From UHGV virus genome UHGV-1687067: DNA of 17,335 nucleotides; one strand, 5' to 3'. This document shows, piece after piece, positions 2,767 through 9,753 of this stretch (its first letter is position 1; every line of letters begins with the position of its first letter). The notes under the pieces were generated by a model. That model made no database searches and was not told where the DNA came from. It worked only from the letters and a program-made list of their open reading frames with translations. The position numbers and the translations under genes are program-made. The stretch comes from a virus.

Positions 2767-3494
2767 TGAATTTAGAATCCATTCTAAAATTCCACTTTCC
2801 TAAATCACCGCGATTATCTGACGAAAGCCGGGGCACGTCCCCGGACGCTCTTAATACGACGGATGCGCTAACCGCTGCGGGTATGGCGCAATCGCGCGTA
2901 GAGCTTGGATATAGCGCTTTTTTAGGGAAGATGGAACTATCACAAGCCGAAAAACACAGGGCCGTAGTTTTGCTTACAGAGCGTTTAAGGGCTATGGCGA
3001 AAGATTACGAATACGTGATGGAGTTAAACGAGGCACAACGCAATGATCTTATTATTCTTGTTTCCGTTTTCGCGTTTCGGGATTACTGCCAGAGTGCAGC
3101 GACCGAAAAAGTTTGCCCTAAGTGCGGCGGTCACGGGCATTTACCAAATCCATATTGCAAATACACATCAACAATTTGCGCACGGTGCGGCGGCAAAGGC
3201 TACGTTAAAAACCATTGCCAGCGGTGTAAGGGCCGTGGCGAAGTACCGGATAAAGCAGCCAGCGAAGCGGCGGAAATGCCAGTATTCAAAACGTGCCAGC
3301 ATTGCGGCGGGCGTGGGTACTCGCGTTTCCCGGTAGATCTCGTCCGGCAGGCGGTTAATCAGCTTGTTTTTCCGGTAAGCCGATCAACATGGTGGAAGAA
3401 ATACCGGGTTTTCTATGAAGACGCCATAGCGGAGCTATTCAAAGAAGAGGCCCGCGCGGAAAGCGAAATCAAACGAGTGACACGGGGTGAATAA
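2766..3494 (+). CDS. Q: Late-gene antitermination protein Q (lambda Q family) with four CxxCxGxG zinc-finger repeats
   Basis: N-terminus MNLESILKFHFPKSPRLSDESRGTSPDAL...AAGMAQS...GKMELSQ parallels lambda Q (MRLESVAKFHSPKSPMMSDSPRATASDSL...AAMGMAQSQ...GKHELSQ). Central region carries CPKCGGHG, CARCGGKG, CQRCKGRG, CQHCGGRGYSR. Confidence 0.85.
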   Translation: MNLESILKFHFPKSPRLSDESRGTSPDALNTTDALTAAGMAQSRVELGYSAFLGKMELSQAEKHRAVVLLTERLRAMAKDYEYVMELNEAQRNDLIILVSVFAFRDYCQSAATEKVCPKCGGHGHLPNPYCKYTSTICARCGGKGYVKNHCQRCKGRGEVPDKAASEAAEMPVFKTCQHCGGRGYSRFPVDLVRQAVNQLVFPVSRSTWWKKYRVFYEDAIAELFKEEARAESEIKRVTRGE

Positions 3495-3694
3495 TGGATA
3501 AGCTGGAAATAAACGATCAGTTTGCCGTTATCTTATTCGAAGATAAAACAGGCGGCGCATGGTGTAAGAAGGTCACTGGTGCTGAAGCACGCTTAATATT
3601 GGGTATGGCAAGCGCGTTAAATGAAGGCGAATTGCCCGCCATCCCTATTAAGCCTGTAAAAATTTACAAGCGTGGTGACGATGATGAAGCCTAA
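3494..3694 (+). CDS. Hypothetical protein (66 aa)
   Basis: ATG overlaps Q stop (TAATG); first gene of the tightly coupled small-gene island. Confidence 0.45.
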   Translation: MDKLEINDQFAVILFEDKTGGAWCKKVTGAEARLILGMASALNEGELPAIPIKPVKIYKRGDDDEA

Positions 3695-3956
3695 ATTAAA
3701 AGAGCATATTTACCGCCAGTTGGTTAACGATCTGACGGAAACGGCCCGTCATTACGCCGGAACACAACAGCTACGCGGGCGGTTATCTTCAGTTGTCAAC
3801 CGTTACATTGATACCGGATGTCATCGCAAAGGTGAAATCACGATGGACGAGGCCATCAAGCGCCGTTCTGCTGAATGGTCAGTGAGTAATACCGGATTAA
3901 CCGGATATATTGAAGGCTATAACGACTGTTTACAGGATCATAGCGATGGCAAGTAA
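3681..3956 (+). CDS. Hypothetical protein (about 91 aa)
   Basis: Track ORF begins at GTG 3672; internal ATG 3681 (MMKPKLKEH...) with GGTGA upstream is preferred. Confidence 0.4.
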   Translation: MMKPKLKEHIYRQLVNDLTETARHYAGTQQLRGRLSSVVNRYIDTGCHRKGEITMDEAIKRRSAEWSVSNTGLTGYIEGYNDCLQDHSDGK

Positions 3957-4254
3957 AGACCTGCATTTGAATCTGAAAGGGGAATATTTCCACGCTATCC
4001 GGGCGGGAAAGAAGGTGGAGGAATACCGGCTTTATAATGACTATTGGCGTAAACGTCTGGAAGGGCGGGAATATGAGCGCCTGATTATTAAATGGGGATA
4101 CCCTGCCAACCACGAAAAACACAGGATTATTAACCTTCCTTATTTTGGGTACGAAGTGAAAACTATCACACATCCATTATTCGGCACTGATCCGGTGAGA
4201 GTATTCGCAATTAAATGTGATGTGAATTGGATGTTAAGGTGGGTCGAGCAATGA
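3946..4254 (+). CDS. ASCH/PUA-like domain protein (putative)
   Basis: From ATG 3946: MASKDLHLNLKGEYFHAIRAGKKVEEYRLYNDYW... resembles the ASCH N-terminal signature (xLxxKxEYFxxIxxGxKxxExR), recalled from memory. Track start 3910 is TTG and rejected. Confidence 0.4.
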   Translation: MASKDLHLNLKGEYFHAIRAGKKVEEYRLYNDYWRKRLEGREYERLIIKWGYPANHEKHRIINLPYFGYEVKTITHPLFGTDPVRVFAIKCDVNWMLRWVEQ

Positions 4255-4463
4255 AAAGTAACCGTAAACGCCTTGTAAGGGCATATGACAAAGCATTAAT
4301 GACTTTTGATGATCTACGACACAATAAGCGCCGCCGCCGTAAATGGGCGCGTATGCTTGTTAGTGAATGGCATGATGAGGATTTTTTCCTTGAAGCCAGG
4401 CACATGACGCAGGATGTAGCGGACGCATTAGCTGACGAGAACGTTTATTACATGATGTGGTGA
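4251..4463 (+). CDS. Hypothetical basic protein (70 aa)
   Basis: ATG 4251 overlaps upstream stop (ATGA), AAGGTGGG upstream. Arg/Lys-rich (NKRRRRKWAR). Track start 4227 is TTG. Confidence 0.4.
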   Translation: MKSNRKRLVRAYDKALMTFDDLRHNKRRRRKWARMLVSEWHDEDFFLEARHMTQDVADALADENVYYMMW

Positions 4464-4467
4464 TAAT

Positions 4468-4833
4468 ATGCAAATAATCATTGATTATCTTTGCCATGCT
4501 GCAAATACGCTTTTTGGTTTTTATCAGCAACCATTCCTCAAAGAATGGGACGAAATGCTTAATGACATCATTGATAAAGGGTTAATAGTTGAAGTAGGCG
4601 AGCTAACTATAAAATTTAATTACGAAGGAAAAGAATATGATATATGGGTAGGCAACAGATGGTACGCATACGGGCATATTTATTCAATTGGCGGCAAATA
4701 CATTAAACGTAGCCAGGAGTTCAGACCGCGATTCCGCACAATGCGCCGCCTGCGTGACCTGCATATGAATATACTTGAAAATCAGGAAGCGTGTGAACTA
4801 TTCAAAATCTACGGAGATAAATCATGGAACTAA
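4468..4833 (+). CDS. Hypothetical protein (121 aa)
   Basis: ATG 4468, 4 nt after upstream stop; no recognisable motif. Confidence 0.45.
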   Translation: MQIIIDYLCHAANTLFGFYQQPFLKEWDEMLNDIIDKGLIVEVGELTIKFNYEGKEYDIWVGNRWYAYGHIYSIGGKYIKRSQEFRPRFRTMRRLRDLHMNILENQEACELFKIYGDKSWN

Positions 4834-5054
4834 AAATCTGGCAGGCTATCGACGTAGTTGATAACGCGTTATCTATGTTCGCCACTAACGGGAAACGCGT
4901 TGTGATAGCTACATGGACACGTAACCATGATGATATTGTTTTTCGTCGCAAGGCTGCGGAGTGGCTTTTCTCTGACAACGGCTACACGATGAATATCATG
5001 CAGCTTTCCAGAATGAAGGATGAAAAGCTGGTTGATAGTTACACAACTGCATAG
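4824..5054 (+). CDS. Hypothetical protein (76 aa)
   Basis: ATG 4824 overlaps upstream gene end; part of coupled array. Confidence 0.4.
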   Translation: MELKIWQAIDVVDNALSMFATNGKRVVIATWTRNHDDIVFRRKAAEWLFSDNGYTMNIMQLSRMKDEKLVDSYTTA

Positions 5055-5064
5055 TGGGGCAAAT

Positions 5065-5298
5065 ATGTGTATCTATGAACACAAGCGGGATAAAACCCGC
5101 TTTTTTGTTCGTGCTGGCGTGGCTTACCAGTATCACGACTGCGGATATATCGAGGCGCTTGCTTACGATCTGGACTTCGAACAAGAAAAAGAATGGTTCG
5201 ATTTCAAAATTTACCGGAAGCGTAAACCGACGCGCGACGAGCGACACGCTATCCGGGACTTTTTAATCAGCATAGACCGCTGGGAGACAGAGGAATGA
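5065..5298 (+). CDS. Hypothetical protein (about 77 aa)
   Basis: Preferred ATG 5065 (MCIYEHKRDK...) just after upstream stop at 5054; track start 5020 would overlap the upstream gene by 35 nt. Confidence 0.35.
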   Translation: MCIYEHKRDKTRFFVRAGVAYQYHDCGYIEALAYDLDFEQEKEWFDFKIYRKRKPTRDERHAIRDFLISIDRWETEE

Positions 5299-5582
5299 GA
5301 GCGAAGAAAACAGCAGATCAGAAAGCGTTAGTTATCACTACAACTGATGTGTCGTTATTCACGAAGGGTGAAGAAATAGATCTTAAATTACTTTTCGGCA
5401 TGTTTGAGCCACACGAAAAGCCGTGGTTCGTGCATGAAGACAAACAGGGAAATATGCGCGTAGTAGTGCCGGACAAAAACAGCGACATATTTTTTGCTAT
5501 TCCAGACCCGTTACATGACGGTGAATTGCTGGCGGTATTGTTGATCGCTGATGCTGTTACTTATAAAGGGAAAGAAATATGA
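5295..5582 (+). CDS. Hypothetical protein (95 aa)
   Basis: ATGA overlap with upstream stop; GGAG 8 nt upstream. Confidence 0.45.
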   Translation: MRAKKTADQKALVITTTDVSLFTKGEEIDLKLLFGMFEPHEKPWFVHEDKQGNMRVVVPDKNSDIFFAIPDPLHDGELLAVLLIADAVTYKGKEI

Positions 5583-5806
5583 AAGTTAAATTCTTGCACG
5601 ATCACGGCTACCCATCATTAAAACGCGTGGTAGGGGAAACGGTAGACGTTGTTCATTCTGATGATGTGACCTGCGTCATTTTGGGTAAAGACCTTATCGC
5701 TCACGGTGCTGATGATTACTACATTAACCCAGCGTGGTCATATACGTTTAGCCTGGGCGACTTCGTAGGCGATAAGGGGCGCGGCTTGCAAGTAGTCGAG
5801 GGTTAA
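5579..5806 (+). CDS. Hypothetical protein (75 aa)
   Basis: ATGA start/stop overlap at 5579-5582. Confidence 0.45.
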   Translation: MKVKFLHDHGYPSLKRVVGETVDVVHSDDVTCVILGKDLIAHGADDYYINPAWSYTFSLGDFVGDKGRGLQVVEG

Positions 5807-5810
5807 TATC

Positions 5811-6026
5811 ATGGACGTTTACGAAGATTTATACCTTCAAACAAATACCAGCACTTTTTATTTTTTGAAAAACGGCGTCGTATATCGCAGCGATGACGGG
5901 GTAATAATGAAAGAGTGGCTATTTAAACGCAAAGACCTACTTGATGACCTGGTTTTTGCCGGGATATTCCGTAAACGTCCGGCTAACCTGGAAGAAGAAA
6001 TGCTGATCGACGAGGTATTAAAATGA
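5811..6026 (+). CDS. Hypothetical protein (71 aa), possible member of the FxxNGxxY paralog family
   Basis: ATG 5811 with GAGGG upstream; contains FYFLKNGVVYRSDDG, resembling the N-terminal motif of the 6268-7219 paralogs. Confidence 0.4.
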   Translation: MDVYEDLYLQTNTSTFYFLKNGVVYRSDDGVIMKEWLFKRKDLLDDLVFAGIFRKRPANLEEEMLIDEVLK

Positions 6027-6268
6027 AAGTGAATTATTTCAGGGCAAAAGACAAGGCAACAGGAAAGCGGGTGGCTATCCTGGTTAATGAAGCAAATTAT
6101 ATGTTTGTTCTCCAGCCGTGGTGCATAGCTGACTATAACGATGATTATCGCCGTCACGCTGCGCGGCGGGCGGTCGGGATGAAAGGCTGGCAGCCTCGCG
6201 ACATGCTTAATTACTGCGACTGGAATCTGATAGCAAAATACACGGTCGATTATAAAGGGGTTTTCTGA
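6023..6268 (+). CDS. Hypothetical protein (81 aa)
   Basis: ATGA overlap at 6023-6026. Confidence 0.45.
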   Translation: MKVNYFRAKDKATGKRVAILVNEANYMFVLQPWCIADYNDDYRRHAARRAVGMKGWQPRDMLNYCDWNLIAKYTVDYKGVF

Positions 6269-6480
6269 TGCAAGTTAAATGCTCATACTCAAGCAATGAC
6301 AGTGTTTTCACGATTGGGAGTATTTATGACGTTCACATCGTTTATGGCAATGAAGCACACACAATGAGTAATTGCCTTGCCTTGATTGATAATCATGACG
6401 AAATATGGGTATTCAGGCCGAGCTATGAAGGCGGTGAAATATCCGGTGTAGGTTTTGCTGCCAGCTTTGAACGTTATTAA
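6268..6480 (+). CDS. Small paralog-family protein A (70 aa)
   Basis: ATG 6268 overlaps upstream stop; AAAGGGG upstream. Motifs FTIGSIY and IDNHDEIWVF align with the neighbouring three genes. Confidence 0.45.
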   Translation: MQVKCSYSSNDSVFTIGSIYDVHIVYGNEAHTMSNCLALIDNHDEIWVFRPSYEGGEISGVGFAASFERY

Positions 6481-6490
6481 AGGGGCAACA

Positions 6491-6748
6491 ATGAAACATT
6501 TATATTTTGAGGTATTGCAGACGCGCGACCGCAATATTTTTGAAGAAGGGAAGATCTATTGCGGCGTTCAACTCCACGGCGCACCGGGCGGTGATGGTGC
6601 AATGGCGATAACTGGCGATGATGATAAAGTTTATTTCGCTTATGTTAGCCATATCAATAACGCCGCTGGTTTGTATATTTATCGCATAGTGCATGATTTC
6701 CGTGAGATCGCGGAGTTTTGCGCCCGCGAAGGCAGTAAACCGGAATAA
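6491..6748 (+). CDS. Small paralog-family protein B (85 aa)
   Basis: Internal ATG 6491 (MKHLYF...) preceded by AAAGGGG, the same SD context as gene A. Motifs FEEGKIY and ITGDDDKVYFAY. Confidence 0.45.
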   Translation: MKHLYFEVLQTRDRNIFEEGKIYCGVQLHGAPGGDGAMAITGDDDKVYFAYVSHINNAAGLYIYRIVHDFREIAEFCAREGSKPE

Positions 6749-6758
6749 GTGAGGTGCT

Positions 6759-6998
6759 ATGAATCGGAAACATAGATACCAGTGCACATACTCACGATGC
6801 AGCGCGTTTTTTAAGAATGGCAAGATCTACGAGGTTGACGCGGCATTGGTTGACGCAAAGGATCAGGAATATATTCATGCCATTACTGACGACCAGGGGC
6901 AGTTATGGCGATTTTATAAGATGGGTTGTGGCACGGCGCTTGTTTATGCGCGTGCTGGTGGTGGTGCTTTTGCTGCGTTTTCGTATGTAGGGGTATGA
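6759..6998 (+). CDS. Small paralog-family protein C (79 aa)
   Basis: ATG 6759 with GTGAGGTG upstream. Motifs FFKNGKIY and ITDDQGQLWRFY. Confidence 0.45.
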   Translation: MNRKHRYQCTYSRCSAFFKNGKIYEVDAALVDAKDQEYIHAITDDQGQLWRFYKMGCGTALVYARAGGGAFAAFSYVGV

Positions 6999-7000
6999 AA

Positions 7001-7219
7001 ATGATTTTAACGTGTAACGAATCGAAATTGGGCTGTTTTGAGGAAGGCGTACAGTACACGGCTGAAAAACCGATGGGATTGTCTCCTAAATTTCCGTTTA
7101 TCGTCGTGACTGACACTTACGGTCACTTATGGTATGCAGGGCCGCTAGGCGGTATTGGTCGTTATGTTGTCCGTAGTTCGGATGGGGCGATGAAGGTTAC
7201 TTTTACGGAAGAAACGTAA
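7001..7219 (+). CDS. Small paralog-family protein D (72 aa)
   Basis: ATG 7001 (MILTCNESKLGCFEEGVQY...VVTDTYGHLWYAG); in-frame ATG 6995 also possible. Track start 6926 is a long extension in another gene's region and is rejected. Confidence 0.4.
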   Translation: MILTCNESKLGCFEEGVQYTAEKPMGLSPKFPFIVVTDTYGHLWYAGPLGGIGRYVVRSSDGAMKVTFTEET

Positions 7220-7220
7220 A

Positions 7221-7236
7221 TGTGATCTGTATCACA
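7221..7236. promoter_or_regulatory. Palindromic site TGTGAT-CTGT-ATCACA; fits CRP consensus half-sites TGTGA-N6-TCACA (operator-like site, copy 2)
   Basis: Exact 6-bp inverted arms around a 4-bp spacer, 2 nt after the stop at 7219, in a 98-bp intergenic gap. CRP consensus is textbook knowledge; binding is not demonstrated. Confidence 0.35.
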
Positions 7237-7245
7237 AGGTTTACG

Positions 7246-7282
7246 AAATGGCATTGTTTCGGCAGTGCCATTTTGTTATAAA
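7246..7282 (+). promoter_or_regulatory. Hairpin (AAATGGCATTG / CAGTGCCATTT) followed by T-rich run, overlapping a promoter-like TTGTTT-17 nt-TATAAA
   Basis: About 11-bp stem with one G-U wobble and 6-nt loop at 7246-7273, then TTTTGTT. TATAAA at 7277-7282 with TTGTTT 17 nt upstream. Could be terminator, attenuator or promoter. Confidence 0.25.
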
Positions 7283-7317
7283 GAAGCTGAAGAGAGAACG
7301 ATGCGGAGGGTAGAAAA

Positions 7318-7596
7318 ATGAAACGCTGGATTAACAAAGAAGTCGAATCTCGCTTAAACGCATTTTGGGAGATGGTGGAGAAAGAAGACCCAGCACACGC
7401 TGCAAGCCCTTACCTGAACAACATCGAATATCACTACATTGCAGCAAACAACGCGGAGTTCGAAGAAGAAGGTGGAGCCGACAAGTTCGCACAAAGCAAC
7501 GCATTCAACAACGCAAACGAAATGATGATGGCAGTCATCGAACAGGCAGAGGAAGACTACGAATGCAAATCACTTGAATTCGCACGTATGGCATAA
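7318..7596 (+). CDS. Hypothetical acidic protein (92 aa)
   Basis: ATG 7318 with GGAGGG upstream; first gene after the 98-bp regulatory gap. Net charge about -11 (19 Asp/Glu vs 8 Lys/Arg). Confidence 0.5.
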   Translation: MKRWINKEVESRLNAFWEMVEKEDPAHAASPYLNNIEYHYIAANNAEFEEEGGADKFAQSNAFNNANEMMMAVIEQAEEDYECKSLEFARMA

Positions 7597-7606
7597 GGGG
7601 GAAACC

Positions 7607-7747
7607 ATGAACGCTAACGCTAAATATCCGGCCTGGGTTTTCGAACTGTACGCAAGATACTTTGAATTACTGGCACAAGGTGAAGAAGCATTAAGCATTG
7701 ACGAGTACGCGGAGTGCTTAGGGTTTAAAGGAGACGAAGAAGCATAA
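7607..7747 (+). CDS. Hypothetical small acidic protein (46 aa)
   Basis: ATG 7607 with AAGGGGG upstream; MNANAKYPAWVFELYARYFELLAQGEEALSIDEYAECLGFKGDEEA. Not in ORF track (under 60 aa). Confidence 0.35.
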   Translation: MNANAKYPAWVFELYARYFELLAQGEEALSIDEYAECLGFKGDEEA

Positions 7748-7752
7748 AACAC

Positions 7753-7768
7753 GGGGCCGGATGGCCCC
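7753..7768 (+). other. GC-rich hairpin GGGGCC-GGAT-GGCCCC in intergenic gap
   Basis: Perfect 6-bp GC stem with 4-nt loop between genes ending 7747 and starting 7791; no following U-tract, so more likely a stability or processing element than a terminator. Confidence 0.3.
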
Positions 7769-7790
7769 ATCAAATCAGAAGGGTGTAATC

Positions 7791-8090
7791 ATGAAAAGCG
7801 CTAAATTTATTGCTTGCTGTTTTGTTGAAGTTCCTAACGATGATGTTTTCTGTAATTATGAATTTAAAGACAGCTTAGGCAGATCTCATGTTGTTGTTGG
7901 TAAGCGCGGCGACTGGTTATATATCACTGATGGAGACAGGATCTTCACTAAAAACCAGTTGTTAATAATAAAGGCAGAAAATGATGAAATACCAGTAGGT
8001 AATATGGGGATTATGAATTATCACGCTGGTTTATTGTTAAAGCACGATACGGTAAACAAAGCGCGTAGCTTACCTGGTGCGGAGTTTTAA
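7791..8090 (+). CDS. Hypothetical protein (99 aa)
   Basis: Internal ATG 7791 (MKSAKFIACCF...) with AGAAGGGTG upstream; track start 7761 rejected. Confidence 0.45.
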   Translation: MKSAKFIACCFVEVPNDDVFCNYEFKDSLGRSHVVVGKRGDWLYITDGDRIFTKNQLLIIKAENDEIPVGNMGIMNYHAGLLLKHDTVNKARSLPGAEF

Positions 8091-8093
8091 TTT

Positions 8094-8348
8094 ATGGAAA
8101 TAATCAAAATATGGCGCGGCAACAGTAAGGCTGACGGTGAGTTTTGCCGCGTCGTTCAATTCGTAAATTATGGTAGGTTTTACGAGCTACCTTATGACAA
8201 AAGGAAAGATGATTTCTATTTAAGCGAGTCAATCCCGGTGCACAGAAAAATAAAGGCGCTTAGGGGGTTATTGCGAAGTGGTTTTTATTCTTGCCCTAAC
8301 CCATTAAACAATCCTGAACTGGTAGCTATTTTTTACGAAGGAGAATAG
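8094..8348 (+). CDS. Hypothetical protein (84 aa)
   Basis: ATG 8094 with GGAG upstream, 3 nt after upstream stop. Confidence 0.45.
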   Translation: MEIIKIWRGNSKADGEFCRVVQFVNYGRFYELPYDKRKDDFYLSESIPVHRKIKALRGLLRSGFYSCPNPLNNPELVAIFYEGE

Positions 8349-8351
8349 ACA

Positions 8352-8675
8352 ATGTCTAAATTTATCAGCGTTAAAGTTTTCCGTGGCACTTTACCGAACG
8401 AAGAAAGATTAGGACAATTTGCCGGGCAACCTAGTGCATGTTTCCGTGTAGCCACTGAAGACGATGCGCATGTTAAATGCTTCCACGTATCGGAACCGCC
8501 TTTTAATGCAGACCATCTTGAAGACCCGGATAGAATTAAAAGCCTAGTTTTTGCCTATCTGATGTTCCAGGGTATCGCTAATATGGAAGTGGAATTGCTT
8601 GGCGCTGAACTGGCGGCAGAATACAAAGTGACTGAAGGCGAAAACGGAGGGGTGGAAATTGAGCGCATCAAATAA
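8352..8675 (+). CDS. Hypothetical protein (107 aa)
   Basis: ATG 8352 with AAGGAGAA upstream. Confidence 0.5.
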   Translation: MSKFISVKVFRGTLPNEERLGQFAGQPSACFRVATEDDAHVKCFHVSEPPFNADHLEDPDRIKSLVFAYLMFQGIANMEVELLGAELAAEYKVTEGENGGVEIERIK

Positions 8676-8910
8676 ACCTTACAAGATCCGGTGTAAAGGC
8701 GAATACCCTGGGTTTACGATTGGTTGCGAATACCTGGGCCACATTGGGTACGGCCCTTTCGGTGAGTTAGGGATGAATACGATGGACGACGACGGCGACA
8801 GCAGGACGCTTGATCTTGATTCTGATGATTTCGAATACATCCCTCCAGTTACTTACCGTGCCGTTGATGATTTCCTGGCTGAACATGAAGACGAGGGCGA
8901 TGATGATTGA
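8659..8910 (+). CDS. Hypothetical protein with strongly acidic C-terminus (83 aa), probable TTG start
   Basis: No in-frame ATG or GTG near the 5' end; TTG 8659 has GGAGGGG about 5 nt upstream. C-terminal half is Asp/Glu-rich (DDDGDSRTLDLDSDDFEY...EHEDEGDDD). Confidence 0.4.
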   Translation: MSASNKPYKIRCKGEYPGFTIGCEYLGHIGYGPFGELGMNTMDDDGDSRTLDLDSDDFEYIPPVTYRAVDDFLAEHEDEGDDD

Positions 8911-9097
8911 ATGCCTTATAGCTGTGATTGTTTTGCTTTATATCGCTGGCGCTATCCTGATGTCTTGTTTTATTAAGTTTAGCGGAGCTGAACCTGGCGG
9001 CCTTGAGATTCCTTTTTGGCCTGTGACTGTGTTTATCGCTTTCTTCGACGCTACGGCAGGGCAGATCAATCGAGCTATTAAGGAGCGCAAGAAATGA
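8903..9097 (+). CDS. Small membrane protein (about 64 aa, two predicted hydrophobic helices)
   Basis: ATG 8900 or 8903 in frame of track ORF 8810..9097. Translation MIECLIAVIVLLYIAGAILMSCF...FWPVTVFIAFF is hydrophobic; track N-terminal extension rejected. Confidence 0.4.
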   Translation: MIECLIAVIVLLYIAGAILMSCFIKFSGAEPGGLEIPFWPVTVFIAFFDATAGQINRAIKERKK

Positions 9098-9273
9098 TTG
9101 AAGATGGGGTGTACGCAACAGTAGTAGACGGGCTGTTTTACCGCGTAGAAGGTGATGATATTCGCATCCGCGTTGGCGGTGGTGAGTGGGTAGCGCCAAT
9201 CATTAAGACGACGCGAGAAACAATTAAAATATTTCTTGATGCTGGTGAACTGGTGAGGGTTAGCGACCTATGA
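9094..9273 (+). CDS. Hypothetical small protein (59 aa), paralog of the next gene
   Basis: ATG 9094 with AAGGAG upstream, overlaps upstream stop (ATGA). MIEDGVYATVVDGLFYRVEGDDIRIRVGG... Not in ORF track. Confidence 0.4.
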   Translation: MIEDGVYATVVDGLFYRVEGDDIRIRVGGGEWVAPIIKTTRETIKIFLDAGELVRVSDL

Positions 9274-9446
9274 ACGAGATCGAAGATGGTATCTATTTGC
9301 ATAAGGTATTTAACATCGTCTATTTACTTAAAGGTAATAAGGTGATGATAAGACCTGATGACGATCCACATTGGGAATCAAGCGACATGGATCGGCGGCA
9401 TATGCAAATGTTGGTTGATAACGGCCTGATATATAGAAAGCCGTAA
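9270..9446 (+). CDS. Hypothetical small protein (58 aa), paralog of the previous gene
   Basis: ATGA overlap at 9270-9273, GTGAGGG upstream. MNEIEDGIYLHKVFNIVYLLKGNKVMIRPDDD... shares the N-terminal (I)EDG(V/I)Y motif. Not in ORF track. Confidence 0.4.
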   Translation: MNEIEDGIYLHKVFNIVYLLKGNKVMIRPDDDPHWESSDMDRRHMQMLVDNGLIYRKP

Positions 9447-9453
9447 GCCGTAT

Positions 9454-9482
9454 TTGTAGGGCGTAAACAAACAGATTAAAAT
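9454..9482 (+). promoter_or_regulatory. Candidate late promoter (PR'-like): TTGTAG-17 nt-TAAAAT
   Basis: Hexamers with 17-nt spacer in the gap upstream of the holin, about 30 nt before an intrinsic terminator, as in the lambda PR'-tR' arrangement. Weak -35; inference only. Confidence 0.3.
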
Positions 9483-9510
9483 ATTTCCTAACAATGCGAA
9501 ATTGTAATTA

Positions 9511-9532
9511 CCCGGCCCCGCGCCGGGTTTTT
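9511..9532 (+). terminator. Rho-independent terminator (tR'-like) just upstream of the lysis cassette
   Basis: CCCGGC-cccgc-GCCGGG (6-bp GC stem, 5-nt loop) followed by TTTTT, about 20 nt before the holin SD (GGAGG at 9541-9545). Confidence 0.6.
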
Positions 9533-9552
9533 GCTTTGTTGGAGGAAAATCT

Positions 9553-9753
9553 ATGTTCGACAAAATACGGGAGGCGTGCGCGTATGTGACTGGGGCCGTA
9601 ACTGCTTTTTTCGGCGCGATAACCATCAATGACATTGCCGTCTTTGTGGGTATCTTATCAACCGTAGGCACATTTGCCGTTAACTATTACTTCAAATCAC
9701 AGGAGAACAAGCGAGCGCAAGAGGAACACGACGCGCGAATGGGGAATAAGTAA
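9553..9753 (+). CDS. Class II holin (pinholin, S21-like)
   Basis: 66 aa with two hydrophobic segments (AYVTGAVTAFFGAI; IAVFVGILSTVGTFAVNYYF) and charged C-terminus; immediately precedes a SAR endolysin; resembles phage 21 S (NLYFK vs NYYFK). Confidence 0.7.
   Translation: MFDKIREACAYVTGAVTAFFGAITINDIAVFVGILSTVGTFAVNYYFKSQENKRAQEEHDARMGNK

Follow-up and report, generated by a model that had tools for sequence, protein, structure and literature searches.

Four tandem genes of an mEp021-like coliphage: a cassette of diverged paralogues with a predicted Gp54-like barrel fold

Profile, motif and DNA-level comparisons indicate that four consecutive small genes at 6268-7219 of the virus genome UHGV-1687067 form a tandem cassette of anciently duplicated paralogues. 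The stretch analysed, referred to here as the window, comprises 17,335 nucleotides and is, as judged from its sequence, that of an mEp021-like (mEpimmI) temperate coliphage. The products of the four genes (g1 to g4) are soluble all-β proteins of ~70-85 residues, belonging to a single uncharacterised family. That the genes are paralogous, and that their products have a barrel fold like that of Gp54 from phage Bas11, is in our view highly probable. The best overall explanation is that the cassette encodes Gp54-like barrels acting as host-protein binders, a reading which we favour tentatively; its host-binding or counter-defence component, which is drawn from analogy with Gp54, is doubtful when taken by itself.

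Paralogous small genes are common in phage accessory regions and the phenomenon itself is ordinary. What is new is the definition of the family, its behaviour as a variable cassette in the mEpimmI phages, and the prediction that it has the same rare barrel fold as Gp54. The published description of the mEpimmI phages labels these genes hypothetical, with no mention there of their paralogy. Even if the role of the proteins should prove mundane, the results provide a clean family definition for ~240 unannotated proteins.

Paralogy of the four array genes

The locus was gathered from six GenBank phages and 23 IMG/VR contigs, from which orthologue groups were built. In leave-one-group-out comparisons, the orthologue profile for each array gene (from ~30 related phages) was aligned, using hhalign, with a family profile lacking that group, and the score was compared with those from 100 column shuffles. 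The scores were 47.6 for G1 (96%, z-score 17.6), 48.7 for G3 (96%, z 20.9), 29.9 for G4 (76.8% over 50 columns, z 10.4) and 28.8 for G2 (70%, z 9.2), G1 to G4 being the subfamilies of g1 to g4, respectively. The original prediction, i.e. that the genes are tandem diverged paralogues, had named a shuffled-sequence control; none of the 100 column shuffles matched the real score for any of the four genes.

The four open reading frames (ORFs) are present as predicted, all on the + strand and with ATG starts: g1 at 6268-6480 (70 residues), g2 at 6491-6748 (85 residues, the most divergent copy), g3 at 6759-6998 (79 residues, the best-conserved copy, at the hub of the similarity network) and g4 at 7001-7219 (72 residues). 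The longest ORF for g4 begins at TTG 6926; however, because a MILTC start (ATG 7001) is conserved in 18 orthologues, ATG 7001 is assigned from sequence conservation as the true start. The Shine-Dalgarno context AAAGGGG, noted as common to two of the genes, is indeed found upstream of the 6268 and 6491 starts, with GTGAGGTG ahead of 6759 and AGGGG ahead of 7001.

The two predicted motifs, FxxGxxY and (I/V)xDDxGxxW(x)F, are present and co-linear, and there is a third that had escaped notice, a C-terminal A-x-F-x-x-(Y/W). An N-terminal x-(K/R)-C-x-x-S element is common to three of the four proteins; g2 lacks the N-terminal Cys and has a Tyr in place of the Trp. An alignment of 15 sequences has three to four co-linear motifs. 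Traces of the duplications appear to survive at the DNA level, with in-register identity between g1 and g3 (6280-6291 with 6783-6794, and 6445-6461 with 6960-6976) and between g2 and g3 (6537-6558 with 6808-6829). Since the leave-one-out profiles beat the shuffles, the motifs are co-linear and the DNA traces lie in register, the four genes are paralogues, with g2 being the least certain member.

An iterative hidden Markov model (HMM) search seeded with g1 and g3 contained five subfamilies at convergence (G1, G1b, G1c, G1d and G3), with all of the g4 and g2 orthologues coming next, slightly under the threshold. Direct hhalign comparisons gave 96% for G1 with G1b, 97% for G1b with G1c, 94% for G1b with G3 and 75% for the core profile with G4, whereas an enriched profile without any G2 sequence matched G2 at 69.5% (E 4e-5, 42 columns). 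The G2 comparison ranked first among the 34 gene families compared; G4 ranked second of 36 when compared with an earlier four-subfamily core profile, behind a subgroup of the same family, G1e.

Single-sequence comparisons are less decisive. Smith-Waterman alignment with 1000 shuffles per pair gave a z-score of ~7 for g1-g3 (0/1000 shuffles as good), 4.0 for g3-g4 (5/1000) and 3.2 for g2-g3 (12/1000), and the pairs g1-g2, g1-g4 and g2-g4 were not significant. Weak pairwise scores are common in this region, z exceeding 3 in 18 of the 253 pairs among its small ORFs. These results, with half of the six pairs failing to reach significance, are what might be expected were the common motifs a chance resemblance among unrelated short ORFs. 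Such an explanation does not account for the leave-one-out results, for the ranking of all four genes at or near the top among ~34 control gene families, for the order of the motifs and the in-register DNA traces, or for the independent matches of g1 (E 8e-5) and g3 (E 8e-7) to phrog_31142 (PHROGs v4); it is largely refuted for g1, g3 and g4 and, over the cassette as a whole, we regard it as extremely improbable.

Variation of the array and its genomic setting

Among ~30 related genomes the array varies from zero to five copies at one site and in constant order, (G1c, G1d or G1b) - G1 - G2 - G3 - G4, directly after a conserved gene, gX (6023-6268, + strand), which invariably bounds the array on its left in all genomes examined and is without similarity to the array family (hhalign 0.1%). 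At least 10 configurations occur, consistent with the earlier assignment of the genes to an accessory region: G1 G2 G3 G4 (this window and several others), G1b G3 G4, G1b G2 G3 G4, G1c G1b (G2) G3 G4, G1d G1 G2 G3 G4, G1b G1 G2 G3 G4, G1d G1 G4, G1 alone (mEp554) and none (mEp021), the array being reduced also in mEp013. Most of the loci were located by searches with g1 or g3, such that the frequencies of the configurations are biased, but the range of zero to five copies is solid. The array is dispensable and modular.

Some deletions leave in-frame fusions, as in mEp013_60 and the relative P0007. In mEp013_60 (L005 4499-4795) residues 1-69 of g3 are fused in frame to the C terminus of a gene resembling that at 9094, and in P0007 residues 1-61 of g3 are joined to the C terminus of a gene resembling that at 8352. 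Two other relatives, P0008 and P0010, switch to an alternative frame of 6817-6990.

The four array genes are real genes under purifying selection, with ratios of nonsynonymous to synonymous substitution rates (dN/dS) within orthologue groups of 0.13-0.20 (0.18 for g1, 0.17 for g2 and 0.20 for g4), compared with 0.09-0.13 in neighbouring core genes. The original prediction had invoked diversifying selection; the gene-wide ratios among orthologues, being only slightly above those of the neighbours, do not bear this out. Amino-acid variation within orthologue groups is concentrated in loops, the variable ones comprising residues 29-36 of g1, 52-61 of g2 and 47-72 of g4. The low dN/dS values, together with the loop-focused substitutions, fit a history in which the diversity arose by old duplications followed by differential loss and gain of whole cassettes, rather than by ongoing gene-wide diversifying selection.

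At 82-86% DNA identity, the region resembles the mEp021-like temperate coliphages MagusPhagus, mEp010, mEp013, mEp044, mEp554, mEp021 and mEp515. Over the 1.5 kb compared (5811 to 7330), identity reaches 100% with a prophage carried on the E. coli MS 21-1 chromosome, and related DNA is present in 34 of 5,426 complete E. coli genomes. The gene order of the window, as derived from the annotation of relatives and Pfam scans, runs from NinG (1488-2183) and RusA (2180-2587) to the Q antiterminator (PF03589; 2766-3494), all upstream of the array, followed by ~25 short co-directional ORFs (3494-9446) and then the holin (9553-9753), endolysin, spanin, terminase and portal. The array lies in the middle of the Q-to-holin block, which constitutes ~6 kb of small accessory genes. 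It is closed by a terminator-like hairpin at 7243-7276 (+ strand) with a 15-bp stem, a UUCG loop and a U-rich 3' side, for which RNA folding gives -28 kcal/mol (z -3.2 versus shuffles); a Rho-independent terminator is annotated at the equivalent position in mEp010, mEp044 and mEp554.

Two further pairs of paralogues, on the + strand, were observed in the Q-to-holin block. The products of 9094-9273 and 9270-9446 (Smith-Waterman z 7.4; MIEDGVY and IEDGIY) are related to a third group, gene cluster c40 of other phages (hhalign 54%). The pair 3672-3956 and 4824-5054 is weaker, with z 4.9 and hhalign 25%.

With respect to expression, the Q stop overlaps the next start (3494), leaving no space for a late promoter directly after Q, and the Q-to-holin block contains only two gaps, 7220-7317 and 9447-9552. 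The latter has TTGTAG, a 17-nucleotide spacer and TAAAAT, then a GC-rich terminator (9510-9528) and then the holin, and looks like a lambdoid pR'/tR' arrangement. Because there is no promoter space after Q and there is a promoter- and terminator-like gap before the holin, we infer that, if the pR'/tR' assignment is right, the array is carried on the N-antiterminated early-right transcript, with the ~6 kb block being early rather than late.

The phage is temperate, the window resides as a prophage in E. coli MS 21-1, and the array is accessory and ends in a terminator, as is often the case for morons. An alternative is that the genes are themselves morons, of the lysogenic-conversion or superinfection-exclusion type, which the prophage expresses to the benefit of its host. 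This is improbable on the present evidence. A search of the + strand upstream of 6268 revealed no σ70-like promoter, and the spacers of 0-10 nucleotides between the array genes and their neighbours are operon-like, as elsewhere in the operon. No signal peptide or membrane segment is evident in the array proteins, the hydropathy of which is near zero. The family, moreover, occurs also in Bas11 and other phage genomes of ~50 kb, and T1-like phages are strictly lytic.

Candidate further members and breadth of the family

The gene at 5811-6026 had been proposed as a possible fifth, diverged member, but its similarity is limited to a hairpin of 13-15 residues (FLKNGVVY), the other motifs are missing, and hhalign against the family gave only 0.3-0.9% over 8-13 columns, with 4/100 shuffles as good; it was therefore rejected. 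A better candidate is the gene at 8659-8910 (+ strand, TTG start; YKIRC..FTIGCEY..MDDDGD), probably a dispersed fifth member judging from its match to the family profile (hhalign 38%, E 3e-4, 45 columns, second of 34; 0/100 shuffles, z 6.1). It is conserved in 20 relatives (dN/dS 0.18) and its product has a strongly acidic C-terminal tail (pI 4.05, charge -15).

Two other loci have family-like sequences. The gene at 5295-5582 (+ strand; SLFTKGEEI...FVHEDKQGNM) matches the family profile over 40 columns, but too faintly to be called (hhalign 2.6%, z 5.0, 0/100 shuffles). G1e, which is absent from the window, is an extra family member located upstream of Q in some relatives, between RusA and the gene preceding Q (L033 40-288; L004 694-990, i.e. 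mEp044_46; VVKCTQSS..FFTEGKKY..DDADAWRL..RFKVV), and matches the core profile at hhalign 89%.

It took profile searches to reveal the breadth of the family; only close orthologues came back when 50,697 phages were searched by tblastn, or when g3 or g2 alone served as query in a word-indexed protein search. A profile search of 5.8 billion proteins gave 242 relatives, all of them 'hypothetical' and none with a Pfam domain. Many are on phage contigs of ~50 kb and some carry two family domains per chain (P0063, P0071); in the two-domain homologues, the N-terminal domain aligns with the mEp core profile at 93.7%. Members are also present in Bas11, in which the family HMM finds at least four (coordinates 33759-33929, 37578-37943, 45147-45338 and 47216-47653), comprising 0071 (E 5e-5), 0041, the C-terminal half of 0048 and the N terminus of 0079. 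Bas11 0041 belongs to Pfam DUF7244 (PF23896) and is encoded directly upstream of the holin. PHROGs divides the family into several groups of 'unknown function'. The four window proteins have no match in Pfam or NCBIfam and do not reach the DUF7244 model, PADLOC gave no match at E<=1 for any of seven proteins, and Rfam gave none over the whole window. On these sequence comparisons the family appears to be uncharacterised, outside Pfam for the array members, and to extend to T1-like phages.

Two observations favour the alternative that the proteins are not directed at the host but serve the phage itself as accessory factors, in the virion, in assembly or in the timing of lysis. These are the position of Bas11 0041 next to the holin and the identity of the gene two upstream of the array. 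The mEp021 orthologue of 5811-6026 is gp41, a core gene outside the structural cluster, the product of which was found by mass spectrometry in CsCl-purified virions and is annotated 'virion structural protein'. However, gp41 is outside the family, and mEp021, the source of the virion proteome, lacks the array yet makes virions; copy number also varies from zero to five among phages with common structural clusters and genome architecture. We therefore consider a virion or lysis role quite unlikely.

Predicted fold, possible function and comparison with known systems

AlphaFold2, supplied with the g3 orthologues together with g1 and g4, predicts g3 to be a closed six-stranded β-barrel (predicted local distance difference test, pLDDT, 74.6; predicted template modelling score 0.68) with a long β1-β2 loop bearing F18-x-x-G21. 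g3 is the sole member modelled with usable confidence. The g2 model, made from its own orthologues only, has six strands corresponding one-to-one with those of g3 in the family alignment, with a pLDDT of only 54.7, and a fold search with it gave uninformative matches. Structure prediction had been proposed as a check on a common fold; on these models the barrel is predicted for g3 and putative for g2. When mapped on the predicted strands, the x-(K/R)-C-x-x-S and A-x-F elements correspond to the N- and C-terminal strands, respectively, F-x-x-G-x-x-Y to the β1-β2 loop and the start of β2, and (I/V)-x-D-D-x-G-x-x-W-x-F to the β3-β4 hairpin.

The last of these elements could be viewed differently, with the D-x-x-G-x-x-W hairpin as a single β-propeller blade and the proteins oligomerising into rings, as do two-blade lectins (RSL). 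This is very improbable: when the reading was pursued, the resemblance to the repeated hairpins of long proteins proved to be confined to the motif, the window proteins match no repeat Pfam family (Reg_prop, BNR and GH43-type families were tested), and the model is a closed barrel. SH3b was likewise considered as the closest match and rejected, since matches to PDB sequences were not significant and the structural scores were far under that of Gp54.

A Foldseek search of predicted viral structures (BFVD) with the g3 model returned small uncharacterised proteins, mostly of enterobacterial phages, with template modelling scores of 0.6-0.7. Many such proteins are from T1-like phages. The sole close structural match is Gp54 of phage Bas11 (PDB 9AXB). 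Because 9AXB was released in 2024, we infer that AlphaFold2 could not have memorised it. The near-invariant Gly of the family (F-K-N-G in g3) aligns with Gly24 of Gp54 (I-F-K-K-G, as read from the Bas11 gene). A transitive route to sequence homology with Gp54, via the N-terminal segments of two-domain T1-like proteins, was tried and found nothing.

Gp54, a 66-residue protein that is non-essential in the laboratory, binds the C-terminal zinc-finger-like antitoxin domain of CapRelSJ46, a fused toxin-antitoxin defence protein, at 800 nM and thereby activates it. Binding opens up the Gp54 barrel, with loss of order in β1 and β6, and converts the β1-β2 loop into an additional strand that clamps the target; the G24D substitution in this loop lowers CapRel binding at least 20-fold. 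The authors of that work proposed that the normal role of Gp54 may be inhibition of another defence system. Even close homologues of Gp54 do not trigger CapRel, and activation of CapRel is therefore not transferable to the array proteins.

A different role for small barrels, i.e. as nucleic-acid-binding or regulatory modules (SH3, Sm, KOW or Tudor-like) that modulate phage or host transcription or translation, is unlikely. While g3 has a pI of 8.8, g1 (pI 4.6), g2 and g4 are acidic (pI 4.6-5.5), as is Gp54 (pI 5.2), and the 8659-8910 member is strongly so (pI 4.0-5.5 over the acidic set). Dispensable genes of variable number would be unusual for regulators, no nucleic-acid-binding Pfam family was matched, and Gp54, to which the model is structurally closest, is known to bind protein.

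On the favoured reading, that of Gp54-like host-protein binders, each paralogue would be a stand-alone protein-binding module of the lytic programme, likely made from the early-right transcript reading through Q, and would have its own partner among the proteins of the host, plausibly an immune sensor or some other factor. Docking might occur via the conserved β1-β2 loop and edge strands, in the manner in which Gp54 clamps CapRel by β-sheet augmentation, with the variable β2-β3 and β4-β5 loops setting specificity; keeping, losing and duplicating cassettes would then fit the phage to the defences that its hosts possess. Since the only close structural match, Gp54, binds and activates CapRelSJ46, the counter-defence idea gains an indirect argument.

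Several observations weigh against this proposal. Beyond the Gly element, there is no sequence similarity to the Gp54 family (hhalign 0.15-0.6%; 14/100 shuffles as good), and none of the four window proteins matches PF25180 at E<=1, compared with 116 bits for Gp54 itself. The conserved motifs may be mere determinants of the fold, rather than of a binding surface. The timing of expression is deduced from gaps, and gene-wide positive selection was not found by dN/dS within the orthologue groups.

A more specific version, in which the array is a counter-immunity island, each Gp54-fold paralogue binding a different immune sensor, or one family of sensors across different hosts, draws on the same analogy and is rather unlikely. 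In such an island, β-sheet augmentation via the β1-β2 loop would either block the sensor or be sensed by an adapted host, as Gp54 is by CapRel. If true, the gain and loss of cassettes and the dispersed or fused T1-like copies would reflect an arms race, and several hundred 'hypothetical' relatives would constitute a large unrecognised class of immune-interacting phage proteins.

Gp54 has so far been an orphan, a rare barrel whose one known activity is the triggering of CapRel. Should the g3 model hold, a far larger family would have this fold, without being linked to Gp54 by sequence searches; its genes are tandemly amplified in temperate coliphages of a group prevalent in the human gut, and it occurs also in T1-like phages. 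The four natural paralogues and the variants with zero to five copies in isogenic-like phages (mEp021, mEp554, mEp010, and MagusPhagus with its complete array) provide a cheap experimental handle on the use of the fold to the phage, and on whether defence proteins that sense one member sense others.

Comparison with known systems helps to place the family. The PHROGs group phrog_31142 corresponds to the G1b subfamily, which occupies the equivalent array position in mEp010, mEp013 and mEp044 (E 3.5e-45); it covers one subfamily only, of 'unknown function', and is not matched by g2 or g4. DUF7244 and the other T1-like small proteins (Bas11 0041, 0071, 0048 and 0079; phrog_4788, 9181 and 2684) have the motifs in common with the array proteins and in the same order, although their genes are dispersed, or fused as two domains, whereas those of the window are tandem and separate. 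SH3 and SH3b (SH3_5) barrels have five strands and a 3-10 helix, in contrast to the six strands of the g3 model, and no Pfam SH3 family was matched by the window proteins. Gp54 (Pfam PF25180, 'Phage antiviral trigger protein Gp54') is without recognisable D-D-x-G-x-x-W and A-x-F motifs, and its gene is present as a single copy in a T1-like phage rather than as a tandem array of four in a temperate phage. What the array proteins appear to have in common with Gp54, as modelled for g3, is the rare topology of a six-stranded β-barrel with a prominent β1-β2 loop, and, like Gp54, they are small, non-essential accessory proteins (70-85 residues, with the array being absent from mEp021). The relation that we claim is thus, on the predicted structure, one of fold resemblance rather than of family membership.

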